Program-made: the position numbers and the translations under genes
Source: Candidatus Latescibacterota bacterium
Lineage (GTDB): Bacteria; Latescibacterota; UBA2968; UBA8231
Length of the DNA stretch: 21,965 bases
Assembly: GCA_965242865.1 (NCBI GenBank)
Contig: CBDETK010000012.1
Span: 1-21,965, forward strand
Reading direction: 5' to 3'
Notes under the pieces: generated by a model
Database searches by the model: none
What the model was told of the DNA's origin: nothing
The model's input: the letters and a program-made list of their open reading frames with translations, nothing else
Part shown: positions 750 through 21,965 of the stretch, one piece after another
Numbering within the stretch: position 1 is the stretch's first letter
Layout: the number at the start of each line of letters is the position of its first letter

Positions 750-814
750 AGAGCCTCCTGATTGCACAGACAAATAAATATGATGTGTCTGCGGATGTCC
801 AGCACTTTTTTTTA

Positions 815-896
815 TCCACAAATCCACAGCCCCTAGTACTACGATCCAAGGCTGTGGATTTGTCCTTACCACTACTAGGGGCTGTGGATTTGTGGA
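815..896. repeat. Perfect 24-bp inverted repeat with 34-bp spacer
   Basis: TCCACAAATCCACAGCCCCTAGTA (815-838) pairs with TACTAGGGGCTGTGGATTTGTGGA (873-896). GGCTGTGGATTTGT is also directly repeated at 850-863 and 880-893. Confidence 0.95.
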
Positions 897-910
897 CCCG
901 CCTATGAAGG

Positions 911-946
911 AAGGATGTAGAAAGGATGTGGAAAGAATGTGGAAAA
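911..946 (+). repeat. Three imperfect 11-bp tandem repeats
   Basis: AAGGATGTAGA, AAGGATGTGGA, AAGAATGTGGA. Confidence 0.9.
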
Positions 947-1014
947 CTAGCGATGCCCATACATCTTGCTATCTTTTCCACAAGATGGTGTGGAAAGGGG
1001 GTGGGCATGAAAAA

Positions 1015-2616: not shown

Positions 2617-2656
2617 AGCTTAATCGTTTGTCGAGCCTAAAAGCGGAAAAAAAAAC

Positions 2657-2938
2657 GTGAAGCCTTCCGTCAGCGTACGCCAAGCGCGCCGCAACTACCA
2701 GCTTCCGCGCTGGCGGCAGCTGCGGCGGCAGGTGTTTGAGCGCGACGGCTGGCGCTGCCGCCAGTGCGGGCGGGCCGGTCGATTGGAGTGCGATCATATC
2801 CGCAACTGGCGCGAAGGCGGCCCCTTCTGGTCGATGCACAATTTGCAGGCGCTGTGTAGGGGGTGCCATATTGAAAAGACGAGCCGCGAGGTGAAAGCGC
2901 GTAAACTCCAGTGGGACGATAGGTTGCAGGGGCTATGA
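2657..2938 (+). CDS. HNH endonuclease (HK97 gp74-like packaging cofactor)
   Basis: RWRQLRRQVFERDGWRCRQC...ECDHI...GG...NLQALCRGCHIEKT, adjacent to TerL. Confidence 0.93.
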   Translation: MKPSVSVRQARRNYQLPRWRQLRRQVFERDGWRCRQCGRAGRLECDHIRNWREGGPFWSMHNLQALCRGCHIEKTSREVKARKLQWDDRLQGL

Positions 2939-3984: not shown

Positions 3985-4007
3985 CCCATTCACAGGAGGA
4001 CTTCCCT

Positions 4008-5279: not shown

Positions 5280-5824
5280 CCGCGGCCAAACAATCCGCCG
5301 CCCTGCCACTGGCCTTTACCCGCAACGAGAGCGGGGACCTAGCGAGGGGGTTAGGCACTGTGCGCGGGGCGGCTATTATCTGGGGGGACGTAGCCCGATT
5401 AGGCCGGGGCGCGTTTGCCTTGCGCGAGCAGTTCAAGCGCGGGGCGTTGACGCCCTACAACCGCGGGGTGATAGCGTCCGTCCAGCACGACCGCTCGCAA
5501 TTGCTGGCGCAATACCCTAACGGCGGCCTGCGGCTCGACAGCCGCGATCGCGGCTACTTCGTCGAAATTGATCTACCCGATACCACCGTGGGGCGCGATG
5601 CGGCCGCGCTCATCGACCGCGGGGCGCTTCGGGGCTTGTCGATTGAGTTTGTCGATGAGAAAATCCGTGACCGCGGCCACCGCGATATCGTCATCGAGCG
5701 GGCCACCATAACGGGCGTTTCCATCGTCGATCGGCCGGCCTATCCCCAATCGGAGATCGAGTTTATTCAACGTTGGCTCGACGCGCCGCCGGCGAAACCT
5801 TCACGGAGATCACGATGGCTCTAA
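5276..5824 (+). CDS. HK97-family prohead protease, 182 aa
   Basis: GTGA overlap with capsid stop. Motifs EQFKRGA, QHDR, LPDTTVGRD, GLSIEF and VSIVDRPAYP. Confidence 0.92.
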   Translation: MTAAKQSAALPLAFTRNESGDLARGLGTVRGAAIIWGDVARLGRGAFALREQFKRGALTPYNRGVIASVQHDRSQLLAQYPNGGLRLDSRDRGYFVEIDLPDTTVGRDAAALIDRGALRGLSIEFVDEKIRDRGHRDIVIERATITGVSIVDRPAYPQSEIEFIQRWLDAPPAKPSRRSRWL

Positions 5825-8385: not shown

Positions 8386-8810
8386 TGGCCAACCCTACCC
8401 TTTTTAATCGAGCCGTCCGCGACATCGTTTGGGACGAGATGAAAAACGGGCGCACCGGCTTGGAGCTGGTAGCCAGCATGCCCGAACGCACGGGCAATCT
8501 GAAACGGTCGTACCGGGTCACTCGGCCCAACAGCCGCACGGTGCGCGTTTCGTTCCCCGGAGCGGATTATTTGGTTCTGCCGGTCATACGTGTCCGGTTC
8601 AACGAAAAAAATCAGCGGCTGGCTGCGGCGGTGTTCGACGCGGAGCGCTTGGCTGTTCGCCGTCGCCAGAGCGACATCGCCCAAGCCGTCTTTATGTTCT
8701 TGGGCGCTCACTTCGCTCGAGAATTTTCTCAAGCGAGCGACCCCAACTTCTTCTTCCGTATCAACAGACAGCTGCGCTTCGCGGGGCGCACCGTAAACCT
8801 CACGAGGTGA
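8385..8810 (+). CDS. HK97 gp10-like neck/tail-completion protein, 141 aa
   Basis: MPERTGNLKRSYRV matches the P-x-x-TG-x-L-x-x-S motif. TAATG overlap with the upstream gene. Confidence 0.6.
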   Translation: MANPTLFNRAVRDIVWDEMKNGRTGLELVASMPERTGNLKRSYRVTRPNSRTVRVSFPGADYLVLPVIRVRFNEKNQRLAAAVFDAERLAVRRRQSDIAQAVFMFLGAHFAREFSQASDPNFFFRINRQLRFAGRTVNLTR

Positions 8811-8813
8811 AAA

Positions 8814-8945
8814 ATGGGCGATTGGCTCCTCCAAGAAGGCATTGACCTGTTCGACGTGCTCACCGTGGTCTGCACGGCCATGTTGACGAAGTTGATACAC
8901 GCCGAGCGTCACCGCCGCAAGCGCGAGCGGAAGCATCACAAGTGA
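8814..8945 (+). CDS. 43-aa putative single-pass membrane peptide (holin candidate), not in the ORF track
   Basis: GAGGTG at 8804-8809 before ATG. Translation: MGDWLLQEGIDLFDVLTVVCTAMLTKLIHAERHRRKRERKHHK. It fills the gap exactly, with a GTGA overlap into portal. Confidence 0.65.
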   Translation: MGDWLLQEGIDLFDVLTVVCTAMLTKLIHAERHRRKRERKHHK

Positions 8946-10066
8946 AGGCCCTCGATTGGTTTCGGCCCGCGGTCCTCCGCCAGCGCGTCCATCAACTCGC
9001 GCTCGCCGAGTGGCGCGCCATTTCCTTCTCCTCCGCCATCGAGCGCGCCGTCGAGGAGCAGGCCCAAGCCAGCGGCGAAGCCATCCGCGCGGGGCTGGCT
9101 GCCCAAGAAGCCTGCGCCGGTCTCTGGGAGCGCGCGTTTGCCTCCGCGACCGTGCGCGGGCGCCGAGCGCAGGGCGTGTGCGGCCCGTCGATGCTCGCGC
9201 TGGTAGCCCGCGAATTTGTCTATACGGGCGAAAGCTGTTGGCTGTTGGAGGTGCTCGATGATGGGATGCTGGCCGCTGGGATTGCTTCGTCGTGGGAGGT
9301 CAACGGCCCGGGCGTCTATCCCCAGCGCTGGCGCTATCGGCTCGACGTGCTGGGGCCTTCGGGCAACCGCACGCGCCGCGCGAACTGGGATGGCGTGCTG
9401 CATTTTATGATTGGCCGCCGCCCTGAGCAGCCCTGGAAGGGCCAAGCCCCGCTGGAGCGCGCATCGGCTACCCAACGTCTAGCCAACCTGCTGGAGACGC
9501 GGCTGGGCGAAGAAGCGGCCGCCCAGGTAGGCAATATCATTGCCTTGCCGCGCGACCCATCCCCGCGGCAAAAGCCCGACGGCACGATGTACGATCCGCT
9601 GGAAGACACCCGCAAAGCACTAGGCAGTATCCGCGGCAAAACGGTGCTCGTCGAGACGACGGCCAGCGGCTGGGGCGAAGGCCGCTTTTCCGCGCCGCGG
9701 CAGGACTGGACACCCCAGCGGATAGGCCCCAATCCCCCCGACAGCCTAGGGACGCTCCGCGTAGAAGTCAGCCGCATCATCACCGCGGCGTTGGGCGTAC
9801 CGCCCGCGTTACTCGAAGAAAGTTCGGACGGAACCAGCCAGCGCGAGAGCTGGCGACGCTTCCTGCATGGCACGATTCAGCCCGTAGCTGAAATCGTAGC
9901 TGAAGAGCTGTCGATCAAGCTGGACGAGCGCGTGCAACTCAATTTCGACCGCCTGTTCGCGTCCGACTTAAGCGGTCGTGCACGTGCGTTTCAGAGTATG
10001 GTTGGGGGGGGTATGGCGGTGGATAAAGCGGCGGCCCTTTCGGGCCTAATGGAACAAGAGGCATGA
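8942..10066 (+). CDS. Portal protein (HK97-like), 374 aa
   Basis: REFVYTGESCW, VLHF...GQAPL, ITAALGVPPALL and FLHGTIQPVAEIVAEELSIKL follow the HK97 portal pattern. Confidence 0.9.
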   Translation: MKALDWFRPAVLRQRVHQLALAEWRAISFSSAIERAVEEQAQASGEAIRAGLAAQEACAGLWERAFASATVRGRRAQGVCGPSMLALVAREFVYTGESCWLLEVLDDGMLAAGIASSWEVNGPGVYPQRWRYRLDVLGPSGNRTRRANWDGVLHFMIGRRPEQPWKGQAPLERASATQRLANLLETRLGEEAAAQVGNIIALPRDPSPRQKPDGTMYDPLEDTRKALGSIRGKTVLVETTASGWGEGRFSAPRQDWTPQRIGPNPPDSLGTLRVEVSRIITAALGVPPALLEESSDGTSQRESWRRFLHGTIQPVAEIVAEELSIKLDERVQLNFDRLFASDLSGRARAFQSMVGGGMAVDKAAALSGLMEQEA

Positions 10067-10098
10067 TCGAAATTCTCGACTGGACTTCATAAGCCGTA

Positions 10099-10132
10099 CA
10101 AACGAACGATAATAGGATTTATCGTTAGTTTG
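10099..10132. other. 14-bp inverted repeat (1 mismatch) with 6-bp spacer; dif-like recombination site, operator or terminator
   Basis: CAAACGAACGATAA-TAGGAT-TTATCGTTAGTTTG between convergent genes. The repeat is directly seen; the function is inferred. Confidence 0.5.
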
Positions 10133-10236
10133 GATCGTTCTTCATAGGGGAAAAACGAGAGCGTTTATTCGGCTTTTATCCGCTCTTCTGTCCCCATTAG
10201 CTGGCCATCGATCCAGCATTCCGGTGCCGACAGGGG

Positions 10237-10265
10237 TAGCGACGGGCGATTTAGCCAAGTCGCTA
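10237..10265 (-). terminator. Possible hairpin ending the minus-strand operon
   Basis: TAGCGAC (10237-10243) pairs with GTCGCTA (10259-10265) just after the stop at 10268. No U-tract. Confidence 0.3.
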
Positions 10266-10267
10266 AA

Positions 10268-10438
10268 CTAATTTAATGCGATGCCTCTCCAGCGCGGCTT
10301 ACGCCCTCGATTGTGAATAGTAATCGAGCAAAAGCCTATCACCGTTTTGAATTTTCCGATGGGAGTGCGCAGCTGAAGTCGTATCCTCAGCGGCACCTCG
10401 TCGTCGAGCGGAATGTATAGCCACGTTTCAAGCTGCAT
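10268..10438 (-). CDS. Hypothetical 56-aa protein downstream of the lysozyme
   Basis: ATG at 10438 with GAGG upstream, overlapping the lysozyme 3' end. Translation MQLETWLYIPLDDEVPLRIRLQLRTPIGKFKTVIGFCSITIHNRGRKPRWRGIALN. Confidence 0.5.
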   Translation of the reverse strand: MQLETWLYIPLDDEVPLRIRLQLRTPIGKFKTVIGFCSITIHNRGRKPRWRGIALN

Positions 10439-11009
10439 GACCGATCGCCTCTTGCCAGACAGCGACGGTCCGGCGCGCCCAACCATGCAGGAAGCGTTGA
10501 TTACTCGGACGATCCCGTACCGAGTCGCAGTACAGGGCTATGCAGGCTATGCAGTAGCCCTTCTGCATGTCGGATGCGTTGAGGTCCGGTGACAACCAGT
10601 CCTCTACGGCCTGCCGGGTATTCCTGCCCCACAGCCCATCGACGAACTTCGGCGACCCCAACAGGGGATTCGTCCACACCACCAATTGCTGCAGGGCGGC
10701 GATGGCGCGCTTGGGGCTGGTTGCGGCCATGTGCGCGTACTGAAGCTGCAACGGCCTCGGCACGTGCTCGATATGGTTGGACTTCAGGTAAGTATCCCAA
10801 AAACGCAGCAGCATGGGCATCAGCAAGTCTTGCAAGTCTGGCGAGTTCTTATTGCCGGTCCAGCGGTCCACTTCGTCCCAGCCTTCCCAGCCGGGATTGT
10901 AGTGCCGGGCAATGCCGGCATAGGTCTCGCCGCCGCTGTCGTTGGGGTCGTTGACGTAGCCGCCCTCCGATTTGAGGACGGAAACGAGGATGGCATGCTC
11001 TACCATCAT
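10428..11009 (-). CDS. GH108 lysozyme/endolysin (copy 2)
   Basis: Identical translation to 4..585. Confidence 0.92.
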   Translation of the reverse strand: MMVEHAILVSVLKSEGGYVNDPNDSGGETYAGIARHYNPGWEGWDEVDRWTGNKNSPDLQDLLMPMLLRFWDTYLKSNHIEHVPRPLQLQYAHMAATSPKRAIAALQQLVVWTNPLLGSPKFVDGLWGRNTRQAVEDWLSPDLNASDMQKGYCIACIALYCDSVRDRPSNQRFLHGWARRTVAVWQEAIGHAA

Positions 11010-11173
11010 CGCTCCTTTCTTTGCGCGCGCTCGCGTTTACGCTTATTCCGCGCGGCCAAGTTCCGCAGATTCATGGCGTGGCGCTTTGAGCAGTGCGGCG
11101 AGCACGTCTTGATGCGAGGGTTTAAGGCACGGCGATACCCATCGATTGGGCTGCCGCAGACTGCACAGTTCAT
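11006..11173 (-). CDS. Small Cys4 zinc-binding protein (copy 2)
   Basis: Identical to 582..749. Confidence 0.75.
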   Translation of the reverse strand: MNCAVCGSPIDGYRRALNPRIKTCSPHCSKRHAMNLRNLAARNKRKRERAQRKER

Positions 11174-11235
11174 AGAGCCTCCTGATTGCACAGACAAATA
11201 AATATGATGTGTCTGCGGATGTCCAGCACTTTTTT

Positions 11236-11421
11236 TTATCCACAAATCCACAGCCCCTAGTACTACGATCCAAGGCTGTGGATTTGTCCTTACCACTACT
11301 AGGGGCTGTGGATTTGTGGACCCGCCTATGAAGGAAGGATGTAGAAAGGATGTGGAAAGAATGTGGAAAACTAGCGATGCCCATACATCTTGCTATCTTT
11401 TCCACAAGATGGTGTGGAAAG
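11236..11421. promoter_or_regulatory. DnaA-box cluster, putative origin (copy 2)
   Basis: Identical to 812..997. Confidence 0.75.
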
Positions 11422-11505
11422 GGGACGGCGGGGGCGGCGGCGGGGACCCCTGCGGCGGTCGCGCCTATGGGGGACAAACCGCGCACGGGGGACACGCGCT
11501 TTCAC
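11421..11505 (+). other. G-rich segment upstream of terL, candidate cos/packaging site
   Basis: Four GGGGAC motifs (11421, 11442, 11470, 11488). 11425-11505 is absent from copy 1. Confidence 0.45.
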
Positions 11506-11519
11506 GTGGGCATGAAAAA

Positions 11520-13121
11520 GTGAAGGACGAGACCAAAAAAAGAAGGGCCAATCACGCAGCGTACATGCGTGAGTGGCGGCGCAAGCAGAAGGAGAAAAAG
11601 GCCGCTGCGTCCGTATGTCTGCGTTCGGCAGCCGAGTATGAACCGGACCTCGACGGCTTTTTTGCGTGGGCCGAAGCCAAGCTGAAAGTGCCCTCGGGGC
11701 CGTTGCAGGGCGAACCCTTCCTCATCGACGATTGGCAACAGCACTTCCTCCGCGAAGCGCACACTGCGCGCGAAAGCGGGCTGTCGGTGGCGCGGAAGAA
11801 TGGGAAGTCTGGCCTAATAGCCGCCTACGTGCTGGGCCACTTGGTGGGGCCGCTCAATCGGCCCGATTGGCGCGGGGTCGTAATTAGCCTAACTGGCGAG
11901 CTGGCCAAAGAGCTGCGGCTGGCCATCTCATTAACGGCCGAAGCGAGCGGCTTCGAAATAATCGACCGGCAAACGCCCCAACCGGGTCGCGTCGAAGGCG
12001 ACCGCGGGGCCGCGGTCAAATTCTTAGCCAGCGACCGGGCGACCGGGCACGCCATCGGCAGCGACTTAGCGATTATCGATGAGGCCGGCTTGCTCGAAGA
12101 GACACACCGCGAGCTATGGAACGCGGTGCTGTCCTCGACCAGCGGTCGCAACGGGCGCTTGCTCTGCATCAGCATTCAGGGGATGGGGCCGATGTTCAAG
12201 GAGATGCGCGACCGCGCTCAGCGCGGAGTCTGCTGGCATGAATATGCCGCGCCGTTGACCGCGGCCATCGACCAGCCCCAGACCTGGCATGCGGCTAATC
12301 CGGGTTTACGCCGCGGCATTAAGTCCATGGAGTATATGCGCGACATGGCGCAACGGGCGCTCGACAGCCCAGCCGATCAGCCCTCGTTCCGCGCCTACGA
12401 CCTCAACCAGCCGCAGGATCCATCGCGTGAAAGTTTGTGCAGCTTAACCGATTGGATGGCGTGCGTGCACAAAGAGCCTGCGCCGCGAAGGGGGCCGTGC
12501 GTGATTGGCTTCGACCTGGGGGGCGCATCGAGTATGACCGCGCTATGCGCTTTTTGGCCAGCTACGGGACGGGCCGAAGCATGGGGCGCGTTCCCCTCGA
12601 CGCCGAATTTAATCGACCGCGGTGCCCGCGATGGAGTGGGCGGCCTGTACCAGCGCATGGCCGATCGCGGCGAGCTGAAGGTGTACCCGGGTCGAGTGAC
12701 GCCGGTCGGAGAATTTCTGCTTGACTGCGCGGACCAGCTAAAAAATCAGGAAGTGTCGGCTGCCGGATGCGACCGCTATCGGGCGGCCGAAGCCGCCCAA
12801 GCCCTGCAGCAGGCGGCCATCAGTTGGCCGATGGTCTACCGCGGGCAGGGCGCGTCCGCCGGGGCCGACGGCAGCCACGATGTCCGAGCGTTCCAGCGCT
12901 ACGTGTTGCGCGCCGACTGGTCGATGGCAGAAAGCCTGCTATTCGAAAGTGCGGTACGCGAATCCTCGATTCGCCGGGATCCGGCGGGCAACCCCGCGCT
13001 GGAACGCTCCCGCTCGCGGGGGCGCATCGACGTACTGCAGGCTGGGGTGATTGCCGCGGGGCTGGGCGAGCTGCTGTTGGGAACGATCGGGCTGCCGCGG
13101 GCGCGGGTGGTGTTGGCGTGA
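11520..13121 (+). CDS. terL: Terminase large subunit (copy 2)
   Basis: Identical translation to copy 1 from the GTG start onward. Confidence 0.95.
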   Translation: MKDETKKRRANHAAYMREWRRKQKEKKAAASVCLRSAAEYEPDLDGFFAWAEAKLKVPSGPLQGEPFLIDDWQQHFLREAHTARESGLSVARKNGKSGLIAAYVLGHLVGPLNRPDWRGVVISLTGELAKELRLAISLTAEASGFEIIDRQTPQPGRVEGDRGAAVKFLASDRATGHAIGSDLAIIDEAGLLEETHRELWNAVLSSTSGRNGRLLCISIQGMGPMFKEMRDRAQRGVCWHEYAAPLTAAIDQPQTWHAANPGLRRGIKSMEYMRDMAQRALDSPADQPSFRAYDLNQPQDPSRESLCSLTDWMACVHKEPAPRRGPCVIGFDLGGASSMTALCAFWPATGRAEAWGAFPSTPNLIDRGARDGVGGLYQRMADRGELKVYPGRVTPVGEFLLDCADQLKNQEVSAAGCDRYRAAEAAQALQQAAISWPMVYRGQGASAGADGSHDVRAFQRYVLRADWSMAESLLFESAVRESSIRRDPAGNPALERSRSRGRIDVLQAGVIAAGLGELLLGTIGLPRARVVLA

Positions 13122-13161
13122 AGCTTAATCGTTTGTCGAGCCTAAAAGCGGAAAAAAAAAC

Positions 13162-13443
13162 GTGAAGCCTTCCGTCAGCGTACGCCAAGCGCGCCGCAAC
13201 TACCAGCTTCCGCGCTGGCGGCAGCTGCGGCGGCAGGTGTTTGAGCGCGACGGCTGGCGCTGCCGCCAGTGCGGGCGGGCCGGTCGATTGGAGTGCGATC
13301 ATATCCGCAACTGGCGCGAAGGCGGCCCCTTCTGGTCGATGCACAATTTGCAGGCGCTGTGTAGGGGGTGCCATATTGAAAAGACGAGCCGCGAGGTGAA
13401 AGCGCGTAAACTCCAGTGGGACGATAGGTTGCAGGGGCTATGA
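13162..13443 (+). CDS. HNH endonuclease (copy 2)
   Basis: Identical to 2657..2938. Confidence 0.93.
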   Translation: MKPSVSVRQARRNYQLPRWRQLRRQVFERDGWRCRQCGRAGRLECDHIRNWREGGPFWSMHNLQALCRGCHIEKTSREVKARKLQWDDRLQGL

Positions 13444-14489
13444 CGGAAGCAGTTCAGCCGCTTGATACAGTGCTGACGTGGAAGGACGTCGGGGATGGGG
13501 CGCCAGCGCAGGGCCTGATTGTCGAGGTAGGCGAAGGGGACGCAGAGCCGGCAGTCACCGGGAGAGAGGTGCGTGTTACGCCCGAGTTTGTGTTTAGCGG
13601 GGGCGTACAAGAAATGAGATTTCCGACTCGGCCGCAGGACCTGGCGGTGACAGATCCTATCCGAGTCACGGCCGGCAACTCCATATATTTAGCCGGGCAT
13701 TCTGTGAATTCTATTGCTGAGTGGTATATAGCGGTCCAGTTAAACGCCGCGGTGCTTAGCGATACGAGCGCGGCTGTAAGAACGTTGGTCGAGGCCACCG
13801 GCACAGCCGGCACCGTCTTGCAGAATCCGCCCGCTCTTATCGGACTCAATATTGGTCCAAATTCGCCGTTGCCGAGCTACGTTATCGCGGCCGCCGGCCT
13901 GTCGCCGGGGGCGACCTTTCCAGACAATCAAGAGGTCGTCACCACGCTAAATTTGAGCTGGAACGGCCTCAACAGTTTTAACGATAGAATCCGGGGCACC
14001 CACTTGCTGGCGATTAAGCGGCCCATTGAAATTCGATACTTTGCGAACCACCGCTTCCTCGTTCTGCCAATCGCCAATAGCGACATCATATTTTCGTCGC
14101 GTTCGCGCCGCTCGGGCTTATCTGATTATAGAAGCAGGACGCCCATCCCAGGGACGCTGACGGCCCTGCCCGTGAATTGGACCTATCAAGGCGCGCCCAC
14201 CGTTAGCCCTGAAGGTCCTTTCACGGCGCGCCGCCTGTTTGCTCGACGCGACGACAGCCAGGTCGAAACCGTCAATTACTCGACGGATGATGATGGCAAT
14301 ACAGTCGCCACGGTCCGAAGGGCTACCGATTTTATCGTCCGGCGCGACACCATCCCGCCGGTCAGTGCGCTACTTTCCGAGTTCGACACGTGGGACGGCA
14401 GCCGCCCGGTCTGGAGCGTCGAAACCGTCGAACATCTCGACCGCGCTCGCTTTGCTCGACTGAGGTGTTCCGAATTTGTTGTTGTGTAA
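13440..14489 (+). CDS. Putative head-closure protein with insertion (copy 2)
   Basis: Identical to 2935..3984. Confidence 0.55.
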   Translation: MTEAVQPLDTVLTWKDVGDGAPAQGLIVEVGEGDAEPAVTGREVRVTPEFVFSGGVQEMRFPTRPQDLAVTDPIRVTAGNSIYLAGHSVNSIAEWYIAVQLNAAVLSDTSAAVRTLVEATGTAGTVLQNPPALIGLNIGPNSPLPSYVIAAAGLSPGATFPDNQEVVTTLNLSWNGLNSFNDRIRGTHLLAIKRPIEIRYFANHRFLVLPIANSDIIFSSRSRRSGLSDYRSRTPIPGTLTALPVNWTYQGAPTVSPEGPFTARRLFARRDDSQVETVNYSTDDDGNTVATVRRATDFIVRRDTIPPVSALLSEFDTWDGSRPVWSVETVEHLDRARFARLRCSEFVVV

Positions 14490-14512
14490 CCCATTCACAG
14501 GAGGACTTCCCT

Positions 14513-15784
14513 TTGACCCCTTTGCAGAAACTCCAAGTTCGGCAGTCCGAGCTTCGTCAGCGCGTCAACGATTTGTTGGGCAAGGACACGCTCGAAGACG
14601 CGGAGGCGACCGAGCTGGAAAAAGCCACCCGCGAGCTGCAGGACATCGAGCCGAAATTGCGGGCCGCGCTCGTAGCCCAAGACGACGGCTCGACCGCGGA
14701 CGAAGACCCCGCGGACGACGAACAAAAGCGCGACGACAACCCGGACGCCGAAGTCCGCGAGCTGCAGGAGCTATCCTGCCGCGCCCTGCTGTCCAACTTC
14801 GCCGTCTCAGCCCTCAGCCAGCGCAACGCCGAAGGCGCGGAAAAAGAGCTGGCCGAAGCGTTCAAAATCCCCGCGGACGCCGGCCACATCCCGCTGATTA
14901 TGCTGGTCGCGCCCGAAGAGCGGGCCGATGCGGTCAGCGACTTCAATGCCGCGGACGCGCCGGTGTCTTCGGGCCGCTTCCTGGCGCGGGTGTTCACCAC
15001 GTCGATAGCCCGCTGGCTGGGCGTCACCTTCGAGAGCGTGCCCGTAGGCGAGCGCGTCCACACGGTGCTCACCGGCGGCGTCGATCCGGACACCGTAGCC
15101 CGCGCTGCCGCCCACGATGCGGACGCGGCCACGCTGTCGACGGTCGTCATGGATCCGCACCGCATCACGGCGCGGTACCTGTTCGAGCTCGAAGATTTGG
15201 CGCGGCTGCCGCAGTTGGAAGCGCGGCTGAGGCAGGACTTGTCGATGGCGTTGGCCAACGAGATGGACGATCAGATTTTCAACGGCAACGCCCAACTGAT
15301 GTCCAACGGCCTGTCCAACGCGCTGGCGGCCGGCCAGACCGAGACGGTAGCCACCTTCTCGACGGCGACCGCCGAAGACCTCCATGGGGACGTCCTCTCG
15401 GCGATTGATGGGGTGTACGCGACCATGCTCGAGGACGTGCGGTTGGCGATGGATAGCAGCTCGCTGGTCGCATTCAAGAAGTTGGTCAATGCGGACGTGG
15501 AAATGTTCCTCTACGACATCCTCAAGATGCAGGGGCTGTCGATGAACTCGTCCAACCACATCGCGGGCGGGCAGCTGGCCGACGGCGACAAGTGGGCCTA
15601 TGCCTCGAAGGGGCGCGGGCTGGCCGGCGCCGCGATCGCGGCCGTGTGGCCGTCCCTGCAGCTCATCCGCGATCCGTACACGGCCGCGGCCAAGGGCCAA
15701 GTCGCCCTCACCATCATTCAGATGTGGGATTTCGCCCTCATTCGCGCGGCCAACTTCCGCCGCTTCGTCGCGACCGCGAAGTGA
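14513..15784 (+). CDS. Major capsid protein (copy 2)
   Basis: Identical to 4008..5279. Confidence 0.92.
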   Translation: MTPLQKLQVRQSELRQRVNDLLGKDTLEDAEATELEKATRELQDIEPKLRAALVAQDDGSTADEDPADDEQKRDDNPDAEVRELQELSCRALLSNFAVSALSQRNAEGAEKELAEAFKIPADAGHIPLIMLVAPEERADAVSDFNAADAPVSSGRFLARVFTTSIARWLGVTFESVPVGERVHTVLTGGVDPDTVARAAAHDADAATLSTVVMDPHRITARYLFELEDLARLPQLEARLRQDLSMALANEMDDQIFNGNAQLMSNGLSNALAAGQTETVATFSTATAEDLHGDVLSAIDGVYATMLEDVRLAMDSSSLVAFKKLVNADVEMFLYDILKMQGLSMNSSNHIAGGQLADGDKWAYASKGRGLAGAAIAAVWPSLQLIRDPYTAAAKGQVALTIIQMWDFALIRAANFRRFVATAK

Positions 15785-16329
15785 CCGCGGCCAAACAATC
15801 CGCCGCCCTGCCACTGGCCTTTACCCGCAACGAGAGCGGGGACCTAGCGAGGGGGTTAGGCACTGTGCGCGGGGCGGCTATTATCTGGGGGGACGTAGCC
15901 CGATTAGGCCGGGGCGCGTTTGCCTTGCGCGAGCAGTTCAAGCGCGGGGCGTTGACGCCCTACAACCGCGGGGTGATAGCGTCCGTCCAGCACGACCGCT
16001 CGCAATTGCTGGCGCAATACCCTAACGGCGGCCTGCGGCTCGACAGCCGCGATCGCGGCTACTTCGTCGAAATTGATCTACCCGATACCACCGTGGGGCG
16101 CGATGCGGCCGCGCTCATCGACCGCGGGGCGCTTCGGGGCTTGTCGATTGAGTTTGTCGATGAGAAAATCCGTGACCGCGGCCACCGCGATATCGTCATC
16201 GAGCGGGCCACCATAACGGGCGTTTCCATCGTCGATCGGCCGGCCTATCCCCAATCGGAGATCGAGTTTATTCAACGTTGGCTCGACGCGCCGCCGGCGA
16301 AACCTTCACGGAGATCACGATGGCTCTAA
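15781..16329 (+). CDS. Prohead protease (copy 2)
   Basis: Identical to 5276..5824. Confidence 0.92.
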   Translation: MTAAKQSAALPLAFTRNESGDLARGLGTVRGAAIIWGDVARLGRGAFALREQFKRGALTPYNRGVIASVQHDRSQLLAQYPNGGLRLDSRDRGYFVEIDLPDTTVGRDAAALIDRGALRGLSIEFVDEKIRDRGHRDIVIERATITGVSIVDRPAYPQSEIEFIQRWLDAPPAKPSRRSRWL

Positions 16330-18890
16330 CCGTCGCTCAACTGCTCAACGCGATACGGGCCGCGCCCGAAGGCGAGGTCGTCAGCGCCCAACTGACGGCG
16401 ATTGGCACGCGCCTGTTGGCGGTCGGGCGTGCGCTGGTCGATACCTACGCGCCGCTGGCCCCCGAAGACGTGCGCGACGAGGCGGTTATTAGGGTGGCTG
16501 GCTATCTCTACGACGCGCCCAACGTGACGCGCTCTGGGGTGGCCTGGAACGAAAGCGGAGCGCACGCGCTGGTCGACCCGTGGGTACAGCGCGGCGTTGC
16601 GCCGGTCGATTTTGACTTGACGGCCGTGGCCGCGGCCAGCCAGGGCGCGGGCGTGGACGAAGATGCGGTCGAAGCGATTGTGCGGCGGCTGGTTGCCGAC
16701 TGGGCCGAAGCCGATAGTTCGGCTGCCGTCCCAGAAGCGAAGCTGCCCAGCGATTCAACCGCGTTCATCGAACTGGGCAGCTTTGTGTTCAATGCCTCTG
16801 GCACCACGTTCGTAGACAGCAATATTGCTCTGCCGGCTGCCGGCTGGATTATAATCGACTTCGATGGGGGCCGAACGTTTTGGATTGACAGCGCTAAGTT
16901 CCGACTGGGCCGCGCCCAAGTCGCAGGCGCTGCGCCGGCTGCCGGGGATTCGCTTCAATTTCCCGGTGCCATCGGGCATGGCTCCGTCTTTATTGATATT
17001 TGGCTGGGCCACACCGCCGCTCAAAACATCTTGGTCAGCAATCGAAGGGGCTCAGGTGCGACCGGGTTTAGTGTCTATCGCGTATCGATTGGCTCCAGTA
17101 GCGGCGGTTTAACCCAAGCGCAGGTCGATGCGCGCATTGGCGCCCGCGTCGAGGCGTGGGCTACGCAAGGCTCAGGGGATACGCCGGCCGCGGCCGATTT
17201 AGCCGACAACCCGAACGTGGGCCAAGTGCTCAAGGCCGCGTCCGACGGCGACGCGGAATGGGCCAATGAATCCGGGGGCCTCACGCAAGCCCAGGTCGAC
17301 GCCCGCGTGGCGGCCGTCGAGGGACCTGACCCAGCTACGTGGGCCGAAGACGGCAACGCGGACCAAATCCCCGCCAACAAGCTGGCCAACGCCCCGTCGG
17401 GCGGGGGCGGCCTCACTCAAGCGCAGGTCGACGCCCGGGTACAGGCCGGCGTCAAGGACAAAGCCGAGACCGGCGGCGGCAAGTGGGCCTACCCGGACGA
17501 TTATATCCTGCCGCAGGGCCTCGAAGCCCTGAACCGCGTCATGGCCGCCGGCGGCTGGGAAGCCCGTTCAGGCGACCTACAGGTGTCGGGGCCGCGGGCG
17601 GCGACGTGGAACGCCAACCAAGCGACCGCGGCCTCCTTCGCCGACAGCGTCCAGCACGGCACGAGCCAAGAGAACTGGTATGTCTTAGTGCGGGCAGCCA
17701 ACAGCTTAGGCAACGACCCCGCGAAATTTCGGCTCAACATCGACGACGACCTCTATCAGTCCCTGATGGGCGTGGCCGAAGTGTTCGACTCGGCTAATGC
17801 CATGTGGTACTATTTCGCCGTCCAAGTGTCGCGGCTGCCGGCCGGGGCTGTCGTCACAGCCGAGTATGACGAAGACGTTGAGCTGGGCGCGGATGTCGAT
17901 GTCAATGCGCCCAACGTCAAAGGCAATCTGACGGACGCTCGCATTGCCGCGGCCCGGGTGGACGGACTGGACGCGGCCATCGACCAGCGCGCCCCGCGGA
18001 CCGCGGGGCTGGTAGAGCTGCACAACGGGGTGATGGGCGCGCCGACGCTGGTCGATCTGTCGGGCCACCGCTATTCCGTGCGGCAGGCGACGACGTTTGA
18101 CCTCGACGATCATCCGCAAGGGGTGTTCGAGTTCGAGGTGCGGCTGACGCTATCGGAAACCAGGGTCCCAATCAACCTGTCGCTTGCCAGCGACAGCGTC
18201 ACTCGGACCGCGACGATTGAAGGGCTTTTGACGGCCACCGCGCTGAGCGCGTCCGCGGCCGCGGCCAACCCGGGGGCTGGCGTGGGACTCGTACAGGGGG
18301 AGGCGTCCCTGTACAGCGGCAGTGCCCTGCAAGGCAAGGTCAAATTCTACGTCGCGAAAGATGCCAACAACGTCGTCTGGAGCTATTTGGAGTACGATGG
18401 GGAGGCGACGGCGGTCAGTGGGAACGGGGCGTTGACGGCGAACTTGGTGTTCGACTTTCAGCGGTCGGATGGAGGGGGCGCCGCCGGCCCTAGTAGCCCC
18501 TGGACGCTAGAGGACTCGAGCGTCAACAACTACAACATGAACCAGACAACTGGTAGAACACACACCGTAAACACCGATCTGGTCCTGCCTGCCGATTGGC
18601 AGAATAAGTTTTTTATGATTACGAACTATAACGGCCCGACCTTTTTCTTCCGTGGTGGTGACTCTGCCCTAGTCGGTGGCTATGTCAGCTCGTCGCCTAG
18701 GAGGGTGCAAATTTGGGATTCAGAGGTGTCTTCGCTCTATATCGGCCGCACGTCTGCGGCCCTGCCTCGAAACCTGAGCTTTTACTCGAGCAGTAAAAGG
18801 CGTAGTGGGCCGACCTCTGGATCCAATGCACAGTACATGAGGATACTCATATCGCAGCCCCGGCTGTATTCGCAAGTGCTGCCGACGTAA
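16320..18890 (+). CDS. Head-tail adaptor / fibre fusion (copy 2)
   Basis: Identical to 5815..8385. Confidence 0.75.
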   Translation: MALTVAQLLNAIRAAPEGEVVSAQLTAIGTRLLAVGRALVDTYAPLAPEDVRDEAVIRVAGYLYDAPNVTRSGVAWNESGAHALVDPWVQRGVAPVDFDLTAVAAASQGAGVDEDAVEAIVRRLVADWAEADSSAAVPEAKLPSDSTAFIELGSFVFNASGTTFVDSNIALPAAGWIIIDFDGGRTFWIDSAKFRLGRAQVAGAAPAAGDSLQFPGAIGHGSVFIDIWLGHTAAQNILVSNRRGSGATGFSVYRVSIGSSSGGLTQAQVDARIGARVEAWATQGSGDTPAAADLADNPNVGQVLKAASDGDAEWANESGGLTQAQVDARVAAVEGPDPATWAEDGNADQIPANKLANAPSGGGGLTQAQVDARVQAGVKDKAETGGGKWAYPDDYILPQGLEALNRVMAAGGWEARSGDLQVSGPRAATWNANQATAASFADSVQHGTSQENWYVLVRAANSLGNDPAKFRLNIDDDLYQSLMGVAEVFDSANAMWYYFAVQVSRLPAGAVVTAEYDEDVELGADVDVNAPNVKGNLTDARIAAARVDGLDAAIDQRAPRTAGLVELHNGVMGAPTLVDLSGHRYSVRQATTFDLDDHPQGVFEFEVRLTLSETRVPINLSLASDSVTRTATIEGLLTATALSASAAAANPGAGVGLVQGEASLYSGSALQGKVKFYVAKDANNVVWSYLEYDGEATAVSGNGALTANLVFDFQRSDGGGAAGPSSPWTLEDSSVNNYNMNQTTGRTHTVNTDLVLPADWQNKFFMITNYNGPTFFFRGGDSALVGGYVSSSPRRVQIWDSEVSSLYIGRTSAALPRNLSFYSSSKRRSGPTSGSNAQYMRILISQPRLYSQVLPT

Positions 18891-19315
18891 TGGCCAACCC
18901 TACCCTTTTTAATCGAGCCGTCCGCGACATCGTTTGGGACGAGATGAAAAACGGGCGCACCGGCTTGGAGCTGGTAGCCAGCATGCCCGAACGCACGGGC
19001 AATCTGAAACGGTCGTACCGGGTCACTCGGCCCAACAGCCGCACGGTGCGCGTTTCGTTCCCCGGAGCGGATTATTTGGTTCTGCCGGTCATACGTGTCC
19101 GGTTCAACGAAAAAAATCAGCGGCTGGCTGCGGCGGTGTTCGACGCGGAGCGCTTGGCTGTTCGCCGTCGCCAGAGCGACATCGCCCAAGCCGTCTTTAT
19201 GTTCTTGGGCGCTCACTTCGCTCGAGAATTTTCTCAAGCGAGCGACCCCAACTTCTTCTTCAGTATCAACAGACAGCTGCGCGTCGCGGGGCGCACCGTA
19301 AACCTCACGAGGTGA
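18890..19315 (+). CDS. HK97 gp10-like protein (copy 2; two substitutions)
   Basis: As 8385..8810 except FFFSINRQLRVAG versus FFFRINRQLRFAG. Confidence 0.6.
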   Translation: MANPTLFNRAVRDIVWDEMKNGRTGLELVASMPERTGNLKRSYRVTRPNSRTVRVSFPGADYLVLPVIRVRFNEKNQRLAAAVFDAERLAVRRRQSDIAQAVFMFLGAHFAREFSQASDPNFFFSINRQLRVAGRTVNLTR

Positions 19316-19318
19316 AAA

Positions 19319-19450
19319 ATGGGCGATTGGCTCCTCCAAGAAGGCATTGACCTGTTCGACGTGCTCACCGTGGTCTGCACGGCCATGTTGACGAAGTTGA
19401 TACACGCCGAGCGTCACCGCCGCAAGCGCGAGCGGAAGCATCACAAGTGA
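19319..19450 (+). CDS. 43-aa putative membrane peptide (copy 2)
   Basis: Identical to 8814..8945. Confidence 0.65.
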   Translation: MGDWLLQEGIDLFDVLTVVCTAMLTKLIHAERHRRKRERKHHK

Positions 19451-20571
19451 AGGCCCTCGATTGGTTTCGGCCCGCGGTCCTCCGCCAGCGCGTCCATCAA
19501 CTCGCGCTCGCCGAGTGGCGCGCCATTTCCTTCTCCTCCGCCATCGAGCGCGCCGTCGAGGAGCAGGCCCAAGCCAGCGGCGAAGCCATCCGCGCGGGGC
19601 TGGCTGCCCAAGAAGCCTGCGCCGGTCTCTGGGAGCGCGCGTTTGCCTCCGCGACCGTGCGCGGGCGCCGAGCGCAGGGCGTGTGCGGCCCGTCGATGCT
19701 CGCGCTGGTAGCCCGCGAATTTGTCTATACGGGCGAAAGCTGTTGGCTGTTGGAGGTGCTCGATGATGGGATGCTGGCCGCTGGGATTGCTTCGTCGTGG
19801 GAGGTCAACGGCCCGGGCGTCTATCCCCAGCGCTGGCGCTATCGGCTCGACGTGCTGGGGCCTTCGGGCAACCGCACGCGCCGCGCGAACTGGGATGGCG
19901 TGCTGCATTTTATGATTGGCCGCCGCCCTGAGCAGCCCTGGAAGGGCCAAGCCCCGCTGGAGCGCGCATCGGCTACCCAACGTCTAGCCAACCTGCTGGA
20001 GACGCGGCTGGGCGAAGAAGCGGCCGCCCAGGTAGGCAATATCATTGCCTTGCCGCGCGACCCATCCCCGCGGCAAAAGCCCGACGGCACGATGTACGAT
20101 CCGCTGGAAGACACCCGCAAAGCACTAGGCAGTATCCGCGGCAAAACGGTGCTCGTCGAGACGACGGCCAGCGGCTGGGGCGAAGGCCGCTTTTCCGCGC
20201 CGCGGCAGGACTGGACACCCCAGCGGATAGGCCCCAATCCCCCCGACAGCCTAGGGACGCTCCGCGTAGAAGTCAGCCGCATCATCACCGCGGCGTTGGG
20301 CGTACCGCCCGCGTTACTCGAAGAAAGTTCGGACGGAACCAGCCAGCGCGAGAGCTGGCGACGCTTCCTGCATGGCACGATTCAGCCCGTAGCTGAAATC
20401 GTAGCTGAAGAGCTGTCGATCAAGCTGGACGAGCGCGTGCAACTCAATTTCGACCGCCTGTTCGCGTCCGACTTAAGCGGTCGTGCACGTGCGTTTCAGA
20501 GTATGGTTGGGGGGGGTATGGCGGTGGATAAAGCGGCGGCCCTTTCGGGCCTAATGGAACAAGAGGCATGA
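19447..20571 (+). CDS. Portal protein (copy 2)
   Basis: Identical to 8942..10066. Confidence 0.9.
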   Translation: MKALDWFRPAVLRQRVHQLALAEWRAISFSSAIERAVEEQAQASGEAIRAGLAAQEACAGLWERAFASATVRGRRAQGVCGPSMLALVAREFVYTGESCWLLEVLDDGMLAAGIASSWEVNGPGVYPQRWRYRLDVLGPSGNRTRRANWDGVLHFMIGRRPEQPWKGQAPLERASATQRLANLLETRLGEEAAAQVGNIIALPRDPSPRQKPDGTMYDPLEDTRKALGSIRGKTVLVETTASGWGEGRFSAPRQDWTPQRIGPNPPDSLGTLRVEVSRIITAALGVPPALLEESSDGTSQRESWRRFLHGTIQPVAEIVAEELSIKLDERVQLNFDRLFASDLSGRARAFQSMVGGGMAVDKAAALSGLMEQEA

Positions 20572-20603
20572 TCGAAATTCTCGACTGGACTTCATAAGCC
20601 GTA

Positions 20604-20637
20604 CAAACGAACGATAATAGGATTTATCGTTAGTTTG
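20604..20637. other. dif-like inverted repeat (copy 2)
   Basis: Identical to 10099..10132. Confidence 0.5.
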
Positions 20638-20772
20638 GATCGTTCTTCATAGGGGAAAAACGAGAGCGTTTATTCGGCTTTTATCCGCTCTTCTGTCCCC
20701 ATTAGCTGGCCATCGATCCAGCATTCCGGTGCCGACAGGGGTAGCGACGGGCGATTTAGCCAAGTCGCTAAA

Positions 20773-20943
20773 CTAATTTAATGCGATGCCTCTCCAGCGC
20801 GGCTTACGCCCTCGATTGTGAATAGTAATCGAGCAAAAGCCTATCACCGTTTTGAATTTTCCGATGGGAGTGCGCAGCTGAAGTCGTATCCTCAGCGGCA
20901 CCTCGTCGTCGAGCGGAATGTATAGCCACGTTTCAAGCTGCAT
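20773..20943 (-). CDS. Hypothetical 56-aa protein (second occurrence)
   Basis: Identical to 10268..10438. Confidence 0.5.
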   Translation of the reverse strand: MQLETWLYIPLDDEVPLRIRLQLRTPIGKFKTVIGFCSITIHNRGRKPRWRGIALN

Positions 20944-21514
20944 GACCGATCGCCTCTTGCCAGACAGCGACGGTCCGGCGCGCCCAACCATGCAGGAAGC
21001 GTTGATTACTCGGACGATCCCGTACCGAGTCGCAGTACAGGGCTATGCAGGCTATGCAGTAGCCCTTCTGCATGTCGGATGCGTTGAGGTCCGGTGACAA
21101 CCAGTCCTCTACGGCCTGCCGGGTATTCCTGCCCCACAGCCCATCGACGAACTTCGGCGACCCCAACAGGGGATTCGTCCACACCACCAATTGCTGCAGG
21201 GCGGCGATGGCGCGCTTGGGGCTGGTTGCGGCCATGTGCGCGTACTGAAGCTGCAACGGCCTCGGCACGTGCTCGATATGGTTGGACTTCAGGTAAGTAT
21301 CCCAAAAACGCAGCAGCATGGGCATCAGCAAGTCTTGCAAGTCTGGCGAGTTCTTATTGCCGGTCCAGCGGTCCACTTCGTCCCAGCCTTCCCAGCCGGG
21401 ATTGTAGTGCCGGGCAATGCCGGCATAGGTCTCGCCGCCGCTGTCGTTGGGGTCGTTGACGTAGCCGCCCTCCGATTTGAGGACGGAAACGAGGATGGCA
21501 TGCTCTACCATCAT
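20933..21514 (-). CDS. GH108 lysozyme/endolysin (copy 3)
   Basis: Identical translation to 4..585. Confidence 0.92.
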   Translation of the reverse strand: MMVEHAILVSVLKSEGGYVNDPNDSGGETYAGIARHYNPGWEGWDEVDRWTGNKNSPDLQDLLMPMLLRFWDTYLKSNHIEHVPRPLQLQYAHMAATSPKRAIAALQQLVVWTNPLLGSPKFVDGLWGRNTRQAVEDWLSPDLNASDMQKGYCIACIALYCDSVRDRPSNQRFLHGWARRTVAVWQEAIGHAA

Positions 21515-21678
21515 CGCTCCTTTCTTTGCGCGCGCTCGCGTTTACGCTTATTCCGCGCGGCCAAGTTCCGCAGATTCATGGCGTGGCGCTTTGAGCAGTG
21601 CGGCGAGCACGTCTTGATGCGAGGGTTTAAGGCACGGCGATACCCATCGATTGGGCTGCCGCAGACTGCACAGTTCAT
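21511..21678 (-). CDS. Small Cys4 zinc-binding protein (copy 3)
   Basis: Identical to 582..749. Confidence 0.75.
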   Translation of the reverse strand: MNCAVCGSPIDGYRRALNPRIKTCSPHCSKRHAMNLRNLAARNKRKRERAQRKER

Positions 21679-21740
21679 AGAGCCTCCTGATTGCACAGAC
21701 AAATAAATATGATGTGTCTGCGGATGTCCAGCACTTTTTT

Positions 21741-21926
21741 TTATCCACAAATCCACAGCCCCTAGTACTACGATCCAAGGCTGTGGATTTGTCCTTACCA
21801 CTACTAGGGGCTGTGGATTTGTGGACCCGCCTATGAAGGAAGGATGTAGAAAGGATGTGGAAAGAATGTGGAAAACTAGCGATGCCCATACATCTTGCTA
21901 TCTTTTCCACAAGATGGTGTGGAAAG
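21741..21926. promoter_or_regulatory. DnaA-box cluster, putative origin (copy 3)
   Basis: Identical to 812..997. Confidence 0.75.
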
Positions 21927-21965
21927 GGGACGGCGGGGGCGGCGGCGGGGACCCCTGCGGCGGTC

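Follow-up and report, generated by a model that had tools for sequence, protein, structure and literature searches.

The window analysed here is the whole of contig C12 (21,965 bp), from an assembly of a Candidatus Latescibacterota bacterium, and it consists of a 10,505-bp unit repeated head to tail, in 2.09 copies. As its sequence indicates, the unit encodes its own small HK97-type head, HK97-type packaging enzymes (a large terminase, TerL, and an HNH endonuclease), an endolysin and an adaptor-fibre protein. Self-comparison of the contig bears out the repeat period and the boundaries (10425-20929) that had been proposed in a first-pass annotation, made by a model from the letters alone. The second copy is used as the reference (Table 1). 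A third, partial copy (20930-21965) is 100% identical to the first 1,036 bases of the unit, and the first copy (1-10424) differs from it by two substitutions and by the lack of 81 bases that match positions 11425-11505. The source assembly (6.0 Mb) has 13 contigs: the chromosome contig C13 accounts for 5.6 Mb, another contig measures 154 kb, and the other eleven range from 8 to 41 kb.

Closure of the unit was checked by comparing Logan contigs from four other public sequencing runs with one unit. Contigs from three of the four runs, all of one study, bridge the junction 20929->10425 and reach 255 letters past it on their shorter arm; the remaining run, which belongs to another study, has a shorter arm of only 23 letters, too few to count. 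No RNA dataset was listed among the sequencing runs. In addition, two full junctions of this type are read through in C12 and in C9, a sister contig of the same bin. No nucleotide or protein copy of the unit was found in the chromosome contig, and scans of the unit for tRNA genes and Rfam families gave no match. When examined for the location of a capsid-forming phage-inducible chromosomal island (cf-PICI), the unit was found on a separate tandem contig instead, with no chromosomal copy. We regard it as a free-standing DNA of 10.5 kb, either tandem or circular.

The same type of element is present on two sister contigs of the bin, C9 (22,004 bp), again with 2.1 tandem copies, and C6 (8,345 bp), with one incomplete copy. 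The tandem copies of C9 differ by ~1%, and in the second of them the capsid and portal genes are broken by frameshifts or a stop (about 13,670-14,940 and 20,140-20,320). Such frameshifts and differences are probably uncorrected long-read errors, which limit the trust that can be placed in single-base details of the small contigs.

Gene content of the unit

With the chosen starts, eleven genes fill 92.7% of the unit (Table 1), in agreement with the tight packing seen in the first-pass annotation. The capsid gene is read from a TTG at 14516, preceded by AGGAGG, and the profile match begins at this same position. For TerL, the match to the Pfam family TerL_nuclease scores 21.2 bits, below the cut-off of 24 bits. 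Promoter-like and terminator-like sites are in no excess over shuffled sequences in the unit, and terminator-like sites are not enriched in the gap that separates the portal gene from the next endolysin gene.

Several functions were sought in vain. None of the 10 proteins scanned against Pfam and PHROGs matched an integrase, primase/Rep, tail tube or tape-measure family, and no open reading frame (ORF) of the unit with at least 90 aa matched a primase-replicase, the large proteins left without a family being of structural appearance. The same two databases yielded no nozzle, needle or ejection protein and no regulator of the AlpA, MerR or Stl type in the unit, and no holin was identified by any search of its proteins. 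Even at E <= 10, Pfam returned nothing relevant for u141, the C-terminus of u349, the extension of u870, u43, u72 or the N-terminus of TerL. As the same searches recover integrases in related loci (L023, L024, L027 and L037) and tape-measure proteins on C11 and C4, which are further members of the bin, tool failure is excluded as the reason for the missing integrase and tail. The inventory is, as far as these scans reach, one of head, packaging and endolysin genes with no tail, integrase or Rep, as the first-pass annotation had it. Its additional statement that all unassigned ORFs were 43-56 aa long was wrong, since proteins of 349, 856 and 141 aa also lack a family match.

Table 1. Features of the 10,505-bp unit, in coordinates of the window, with amino-acid identity of the C9 and C6 proteins to those of C12
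Feature	Position	Strand	Evidence or remark	Identity in C9/C6
Complete unit (copy 2)	10425..20929	.	Self-comparison of C12; junction crossed in other runs	
Endolysin, 193 aa, Glyco_hydro_108 and PG_binding_3	10428..11009	-	Pfam E 8.5e-13 and 4.3e-8; phrog_315 E 8e-19	99%
Zinc-ribbon protein with basic tail, 55 aa from ATG	11006..11173	-	ORF list; sub-threshold family matches	
DnaA-box cluster, proposed origin	11236..11421	.	8 nine-mers with <=2 mismatches from consensus	
81-bp segment, 78% G+C	11425..11505	.	In copies 2 and 3, absent from copy 1	
Large terminase TerL, 537 aa from ATG	11508..13121	+	phrog_9 E 1.6e-54	99.8%
Protospacer in terL (spacer 3)	11886..11920	-	3/35 mismatches (C9: 2/35)	
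HNH endonuclease, 93 aa	13162..13443	+	Pfam HNH E 1.1e-7; phrog_589 E 7.1e-22	within the 88-99.8% core-gene range
u349, 349 aa, clade-specific	13440..14489	+	7 homologues; no family match	39-42%
HK97-type major capsid protein, 422 aa from TTG 14516	14516..15784	+	Pfam Phage_capsid E 2.2e-12	88-98%
Prohead serine protease Peptidase_S78, start inferred	about 15781..16329	+	Pfam E 2.3e-21; phrog_80 E 2.5e-24	99.5%
u870, adaptor-fibre fusion, 856 aa from likely ATG	16320..18890	+	AlphaFold2 (AF2) model and fold match	about 60%
Protospacer in adaptor domain (spacer 4)	16461..16495	+	3/35 mismatches	
u141, 141 aa, probable HK97 gp10-like neck protein	18890..19315	+	hhalign, moderate evidence	37-77%
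u43, 43-aa ORF	19319..19450	+	Hydrophobic stretch and basic tail	
Portal protein, 374 aa	19447..20571	+	Pfam Phage_portal E 3.3e-12	98%
Non-coding gap, convergent portal and endolysin genes, 49% G+C	20572..20929	.	Runs 3 bases into the next copy	

The adaptor-fibre protein and its variable neighbours

Residues 1 to ~95 of u870 align with stand-alone proteins of ~100 aa that are encoded between the protease and portal genes in relatives; for instance, this N-terminus matches the 102-aa connector of the related island L024 with a BLASTP E of 7e-11. An AF2 model of the domain, built from 17 sequences, reached a predicted local distance difference test score (pLDDT) of 84, and its fold was searched by VIA against 48,161 PDB representatives. 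The best match was HK97 gp6 (Z 8.8; root-mean-square deviation 2.2 A over 77 residues), followed by the neck of phage Milano (Z 8.7) and by chain 6tba_2A of the gene transfer agent RcGTA (Z 8.0), all Z values of a size that is middling for helical models by the tool's own warning. The titles of the 31 matches at Z >= 5 are nearly all those of phage neck, connector or portal-tail entries. A Foldseek search of the model against PDB found nothing at E <= 0.001, the best relevant match being a phage connector chain (probability 0.87), and PDB sequence searches with u349, u870 and the adaptor profile gave nothing meaningful. Because the list of fold matches is consistent and synteny agrees with it, we consider the assignment of the modelled domain as a gp6-type head-to-tail adaptor firm.

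The extension that follows, of ~760 residues, is hypervariable and contains three copies of a GGLTQAQVDAR repeat, which occurs in up to 14 copies in very long proteins of the protein library. Its C-terminus is placed by the ESM Atlas near LamG-like viral clusters at 0.89, a language-model lead only. An exhaustive HMMER search of the library found 749 relatives of u870 at E <= 0.001. Among the best 150, a list that favours long proteins because the query is itself long, 91 carry the adaptor domain at their N-terminus, and 67 of these exceed 400 aa. A predicted gp6-type adaptor fold followed by some 760 hypervariable residues lends support to a neck-borne fibre, such as had been suggested from the letters alone.

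Variation points in the same direction. The core genes are well conserved between C12 and its sister contigs, u349, u870 and u141 are far more divergent (Table 1), and other sequencing runs contain contigs with unrelated sequence swapped into the u349 and u870 regions. A conserved core combined with a divergent u349/u870 mosaic is what is expected for adsorption proteins, as these two may be.

The seven homologues of u349, all from the same clade, are 33-42% identical to it by BLASTP, and in their alignment the ends are conserved and the middle is hypervariable. No relevant Pfam family was found at E <= 10 for any of the eight family members, and the AF2 model built from the eight sequences was unusable (pLDDT 46). 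The C-terminal ~90 aa weakly resemble a head-completion protein: the match is to a Phage_HCP-like protein of L024 (hhalign E 0.0037, probability 9%), which itself scores 24.3 bits in Pfam, below the cut-off of 25 bits. The closest relative that was retrieved is the IMG/VR contig L097 (7,671 bp), whose TerL, capsid and portal are 70%, 50% and 57% identical to those of the unit and whose adaptor is short. Between its HNH and capsid genes (L097:1829-4396) lies an 855-aa protein made of a u349-like part and three Cadherin-like domains (PF12733, E 2.8e-35). Adhesin-type modules are thus on the u349 homologue in L097 and on the adaptor in C12, and this switching between the two proteins across members argues that both could be exposed parts of the virion. 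We consider u349 a probable virion (neck) protein.

In u141, a region with a P-x-R-T-G motif is common to a gp10-like protein of L037 (hhalign probability 79.5%, E 1.5e-5, 28 columns), which itself scores just below the cut-off of Pfam HK97-gp10_like; with moderate confidence, u141 is probably a neck protein. In the ESM Atlas it meets unnamed viral clusters only. It was also considered as a Phage_HCP-like protein, a candidacy rejected for want of similarity to the Phage_HCP-like protein of L024.

Two smaller proteins complete the set. The u43 product is 86-100% conserved in the sister contigs C9 and C6, and its likeness to a holin comes from visual inspection only. The zinc-ribbon gene overlaps the start of the endolysin gene, and its ORF would reach 96 aa if a GTG at 11296 served as start. 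The protein has only sub-threshold matches, to zf-dskA_traR (E 0.014-0.05) and to phrog_7479, of unknown function (E 2.6e-5); it is a candidate DNA-binding regulator, stand-in for the small terminase subunit (TerS) or origin-binding protein. Similar runs of Arg, Lys and Glu occur in the N-terminus of TerL (11508-11650), the tail of the zinc-ribbon protein (11006-11090) and that of u43 (19410-19450), possibly as nucleic-acid-binding arms in an element with no recognisable TerS.

Relatives, putative origin and host

At the nucleotide level, neither the 50,697 phage records nor the 72,556 plasmid records searched contained a match to the unit. With the capsid protein as tblastn query, the phage records contained nothing at E <= 1e-3 and the plasmid records a single match, 22.8% identical, on a Pseudorhodobacter replicon; a scan of IMG/VR with this single capsid protein found no relative. 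Among isolated phages, the 12 best TerL matches listed, most of them from HK97-like cos phages, reach no more than 27.4% identity. Ralstonia 'phage' records of ~13 kb also appeared among the TerL matches and were set aside, as their relatedness is confined to TerL.

A library of 5.8 billion proteins holds 92 relatives of the capsid, two of which are those of C9 and C6. The four closest capsid clusters outside this genome are 51-75% identical and lie on contigs of 5.6-10.7 kb. By count from the table of all 92, the longest contig measures 8-12 kb for about 30 and exceeds 100 kb for 12. The five u349 homologues outside this genome are on contigs of 1.9-10.5 kb.

In the host's order, 5 of the 75 other genomes have a relative, and five of the six places concerned are in chromosome-size contigs, the sixth being a partial match on a small contig of genome G009. 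There, in chromosomes of the same bacterial family, the genes for TerL, HNH, capsid, protease, short adaptor, (head completion) and portal follow one another over ~5.7 kb, inside islands of ~10 kb with a low G+C content at third codon positions. A tyrosine integrase adjoins the portal gene in L023 and L024, and the other 17 flanking ORFs scanned in these two islands had no family match. Integrases also stand beside the module in L027, L037 and L041. TerL, capsid and portal occur together in 12 of 22 further loci, and the module is also found in metagenome-assembled genomes of Alphaproteobacteria, Longimicrobiales and Dehalococcoidia and in small viral contigs. The viral contig L026 (9,736 bp, with a 55-bp terminal overlap) is a circularly closed relative, with no integrase in the four ORFs tested. 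A second island copy in the same genus (L022, at G047:C1:2943000-2962999) shows one TGA and two TAG codons within its capsid match and reads as a decaying copy.

From these loci, the head module belongs to a widespread family of ~10-kb islands that resemble cf-PICIs, of which the C12 element is the branch without integrase. The first-pass annotation had named close homologues beside an integrase as evidence against its proposal; this objection holds in part, for distant relatives only (the capsids of the integrase-bearing islands are 30-38% identical to that of C12).

The zinc-ribbon and terL genes diverge from a 334-bp gap in which DnaA boxes are clustered, and the follow-up confirmed the presence of this cluster. 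Its eight nine-mers comprise one perfect, two one-mismatch and five two-mismatch boxes; three same-direction units lie 11 bp apart, and a 24-nt perfect inverted repeat spans 11239-11262 and 11297-11320. Matches with at most two mismatches number 57 in the window against 27 expected, a figure reached in none of 100 shuffles. The entire 6.0-Mb assembly was also scanned for 250-bp windows with at least three boxes at <=1 mismatch and at least five at <=2 mismatches, and only five qualified: three on C12, one on C9 and one at C13:3686327. The latter coincides with the minimum of cumulative GC skew (3,686,336) and lies about 0.6 kb from dnaA, and is therefore taken as the host oriC. The perfect and one-mismatch boxes of the gap belong to the same two variants as those of the host oriC, and its box density is oriC-like, as looked for in a DnaA-dependent origin. 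None of 27 related loci has a comparable cluster. These features of the sequence are good evidence that the gap would bind DnaA, and they strengthen the earlier suggestion that replication is outsourced to the host through cis-sites, as the host oriC is the one place in the 6.0 Mb that matches this box density. The cluster may have arrived with the loss of the integrase, a suggestion drawn from a single clade.

Between the cluster and terL lies the 81-bp segment, with four GGGGAC-type motifs, which copy 1 loses exactly after contig base 1000. At the same place in C9, a stretch of 118 bp differs between the two copies. Removal of the segment brings a Shine-Dalgarno-like AAGGGGG to within a few bases of the terL ATG, and as single-stranded DNA the segment folds somewhat better than shuffles (z -2.7). 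The polymorphism may be a long-read artefact, a natural deletion variant, the mark of a packaging end or cos, or a switch.

A search of host spacers, as suggested in the first-pass annotation, was productive. The chromosome carries a CRISPR (clustered regularly interspaced short palindromic repeats) array at C13:3522936-3525814, with 41 repeats of 37 nt and 40 spacers of ~35 nt, two of which, the adjacent spacers 3 and 4, match terL and the adaptor domain (Table 1). Spacer 5 matches the u870 extension with 6/36 mismatches, and spacer 15 has a weak match, with 7-8/35 mismatches, to the 81-bp segment and the start of terL. No match of at least 22 nt was found between the array and any other small contig of the bin. 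The spacers link this bacterial lineage with the element family by evidence that does not depend on binning, and their presence shows that the cell treats the element as an invader. Since they mismatch their protospacers, the resident variants seem to escape.

Two co-binned contigs are those of tailed phages and, possibly, of helpers. C11 (23,390 bp) encodes TerL, a portal, a ClpP-type protease, a tape measure and a GH108-type lysin, and C4 (28,433 bp) a head protein, a tape measure, a lysin and a DNA methyltransferase. Both tape measures match phrog_1533 (E about 1e-70), and the GH108-type lysins are 30-35% identical to that of the element. Six more contigs of the bin (C1, C2, C3, C5, C7 and C10; 9-41 kb) encode very long proteins, of 1,600-2,000 aa; of two C1 proteins scanned, one matched PHROG families of unknown function and the other, of 1,712 aa, matched none.

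Mode of life, rival explanations and meaning

With a confidence slightly better than even, we propose that the unit belongs to a widespread family of capsid-forming mobile elements of ~10 kb, which resemble cf-PICI satellites, and that it is an extrachromosomal member without an integrase. In this composite reading, the element would persist as a plasmid-like circle or concatemer. Host DnaA would be recruited to the oriC-like cluster upstream of terL to start replication, and an initiator of its own would be unneeded. Concatemers would then be cut near the gap by TerL and HNH, the pair that cuts in the cos mechanism of HK97, and packed into the element's own heads. The neck would be closed by the adaptor, u349 and u141, and the variable fibres, borne on the adaptor here and on u349 in relatives, would set what the particle sticks to. 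Delivery would most likely occur through the tail of a helper tailed phage or by co-entry, as in the integrase-bearing relatives and as is described, in the accessible parts of the reports, for cf-PICIs (PMC10085698) and for MiniFlayer, a satellite phage of Streptomyces (PMC10690885).

The likeness to cf-PICIs is one of gene content. As they do, the element has its own capsid, prohead protease, portal, TerL, HNH and head-to-tail adaptor and no tail genes, it is small (10.5 kb against a cf-PICI median of 14 kb), and in its distant relatives, chromosomal islands of ~10 kb, an integrase gene adjoins the head module. Set against the SatelliteFinder model of cf-PICIs, it has all six of these proteins and no detected tail or holin, whereas the integrase, the primase-replicase and the chromosomal location are missing. 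It also differs in its endolysin, its DnaA-box cluster, an adaptor extended by ~760 aa, and a portal gene that is the last of the head module; in cf-PICIs, the portal gene follows that of TerL. The element is extrachromosomal, and cf-PICIs were chromosomal in 966 of 969 cases according to the accessible part of PMC10085698, which also describes how their adaptors and head-completion proteins dock onto helper tails.

MiniFlayer (OQ357865) offers a precedent for an element that does not integrate. As described in the accessible part of PMC10690885, it lacks integrase and replication genes and has its own capsid and fibres, and both it and MulchRoom, having no replication genes, are thought to depend on a helper; a DnaA-box origin is not reported there. 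Its genome of 17.4 kb has its own terminase, portal, capsid, adaptor and HNH, is not integrated, and carries a fibre/adsorption module in place of a lysogeny module. The element presents the same set of features: it encodes capsid, packaging proteins and a fibre module of its own, and it lacks both an integrase and replication genes. MiniFlayer differs in being linear with terminal repeats of 1,057 bp, and in having TerS, a scaffold rather than an S78 protease, and separate fibre and adaptor genes; a tblastn search of its genome with 12 element proteins gave no match at E <= 0.1.

Other known systems are more distant. Satellite P4, of ~11 kb, can persist as a multicopy plasmid, and is comparable to the element in size and in this plasmid state; it differs in that it encodes a primase-helicase and an integrase and does not build a capsid itself. 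The HK97-like cos phages HK542, HK633 and ENT39118, among the best TerL matches, share the TerL type and its partnership with HNH, and differ in their 37-41 kb and full tails. The tube, nozzle, tape measure and DNA conduit of an autonomous tailed phage had no match in any unit protein. The encapsulin-like mini viruses without portal (10.1101/2025.06.18.659913) and IME1 of Dehalococcoides (10.64898/2026.09.15.751708) were also considered and, as far as the accessible parts of these reports describe them, are not relevant to the element. In the open literature searched, no report was found of an episome of ~10 kb that forms capsids, has a DnaA-box origin and lacks both integrase and Rep. Seen in this company, the element would be a variant among known kinds (cf-PICI and MiniFlayer) and not the stand-alone new class proposed in the first-pass annotation, given the islands with tyrosine integrases that share its head module and the precedent of MiniFlayer.

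Several points weigh against the composite reading. It rests on assembled sequence. The assembly looks like a binned genome, with 6.8% contamination, and, CRISPR spacers aside, the association of the element with the chromosome would be one of binning. The possible helpers C11 and C4 are candidates only by co-binning; no spacer of the array matches either contig, and their link to the element is the bin alone. An endolysin of its own and two variable, adhesin-bearing proteins are odd for a cf-PICI and fit an autonomous virus. The assignments of u349 and u141 are weak, and these proteins might have other roles. No TerS family was matched in the unit, and there is no plus-strand ORF between the gap and terL. 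In the gap itself, no clear A+T-rich unwinding element is apparent (46% G+C against 62% for the contig, with one T8 run), five of the eight boxes have two mismatches and lie inside longer iteron-like repeats, and the gap, being a divergent promoter region, may instead serve in regulation or packaging. Firing of the putative origin by DnaA alone does not follow from the box cluster, and the zinc-ribbon protein is a candidate DNA-binding partner.

The last of these points leads to the alternative that survives best, which we nevertheless rate as rather unlikely, namely that replication does not proceed by DnaA alone. The gap repeats would then be iterons or operators bound by an element protein, for which the zinc-ribbon protein and TerL, with its basic N-terminus, are candidates, or a helper phage would replicate the element, and the boxes would be auxiliary or regulatory. 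In keeping with this, the two-mismatch boxes sit inside longer repeats, namely a unit of 14-24 nt present three times and an 11-bp unit repeated three times in tandem, and the gap combines a divergent promoter region with the expected cos or TerS site. Reliance on a helper is also what is thought of MiniFlayer and MulchRoom, which lack replication genes as described in the accessible part of PMC10690885. This alternative is harder to reconcile with the three best boxes, which share the two variants of the host oriC, and with a box density otherwise unique to oriC in 6.0 Mb. The 11-bp spacing of same-direction nine-mers argues against it too. This is the spacing found in the DnaA-oligomer arrays of the E. 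coli oriC.

The second alternative dispenses with the helper for delivery, and we consider it unlikely. In it, the element would be a self-sufficient minimal virus, in which twelve adaptor fibres together with u349 and u141 form a stub that replaces the tail, delivery needs no helper and lysis relies on the element's own endolysin. The endolysin and the possible small membrane protein u43 suit such a life, as do the coexistence of several variants, the targeting of the element by CRISPR spacers, and two hypervariable surface-type proteins reminiscent of an arms race with receptors. The three Cadherin-like adhesion domains on the u349-like protein of L097, and the frequency of adaptor-extension fusions (67 of the 91 adaptor-bearing proteins among the best 150 exceed 400 aa), are also consistent with it. 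Against it, no nozzle, tube, needle or ejection protein was recognised and no holin was identified by any search. Moreover, the nearest describable relatives are integrase islands with short adaptors and head-completion proteins, the arrangement with which cf-PICIs dock onto helper tails in the accessible part of PMC10085698. A fuller version, in which a self-sufficient 10.5-kb duplodnavirus behaves as a 'minichromosome' of DnaA and the host replisome and infects without a tail through twelve adaptor fibres and a second adhesin-bearing neck protein, seems to us distinctly doubtful.

It is very improbable that the unit is a plasmid with capsid genes whose particles do not propagate it, either because they resemble gene transfer agents or because the system is decaying. 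An episomal state, the lack of a recognised entry apparatus and the RcGTA chain among the adaptor's fold matches (6tba_2A, Z 8.0) would fit this idea. It is opposed by eleven of eleven genes that are intact in copies 2 and 3, by core genes that stay conserved in all three co-resident variants although their fibre genes diversify, and by the host spacers that target the element. The location of TerL and HNH next to a candidate cos region also speaks for specific self-packaging.

Finally, the 81 bases missing from copy 1 exactly from contig base 1001, the ~1% difference and frameshifts between the C9 copies, which together mean that the long-read consensus is imperfect, and the absence of a long contig spanning 11244-11490 among the Logan contigs listed would suit an incomplete replicon, a fragment of some larger phage or prophage genome that assembly had collapsed, duplicated or made chimeric, an explanation that is extremely improbable in view of the two full junctions read through in C12 and C9, the bridging of 20929->10425 in three of four other runs, the Logan contigs that cover 11343, the close-clade relatives that never exceed 10.7 kb and the circularly closed 9,736-bp relative with its 55-bp terminal overlap.

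Returning to the composite reading, if it is true, capsid-forming satellites would not be bound to chromosomes, as an integrase module would have been traded for a plasmid-like life on a borrowed origin. Since tools of the SatelliteFinder type anchor on integrases and chromosomes, the space in which satellites are to be sought would be wider. An oriC-like box cluster as sole replication determinant would be a rare natural case of parasitism on the host initiator. Were the element self-sufficient instead, it would be the smallest autonomous HK97-type virus and the first one known without any replication gene. In either case, its 10.5 kb lie at the lower edge of HK97-type genomes, and are relevant to the question of the 'missing small tailed phages' as raised in the accessible part of PMC7762592. 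The frequent combination of an adaptor with a long variable extension points to a widespread and little-described placing of host-range determinants on the neck of small heads, and such extensions bear on how tail-less heads may find cells or helper tails.

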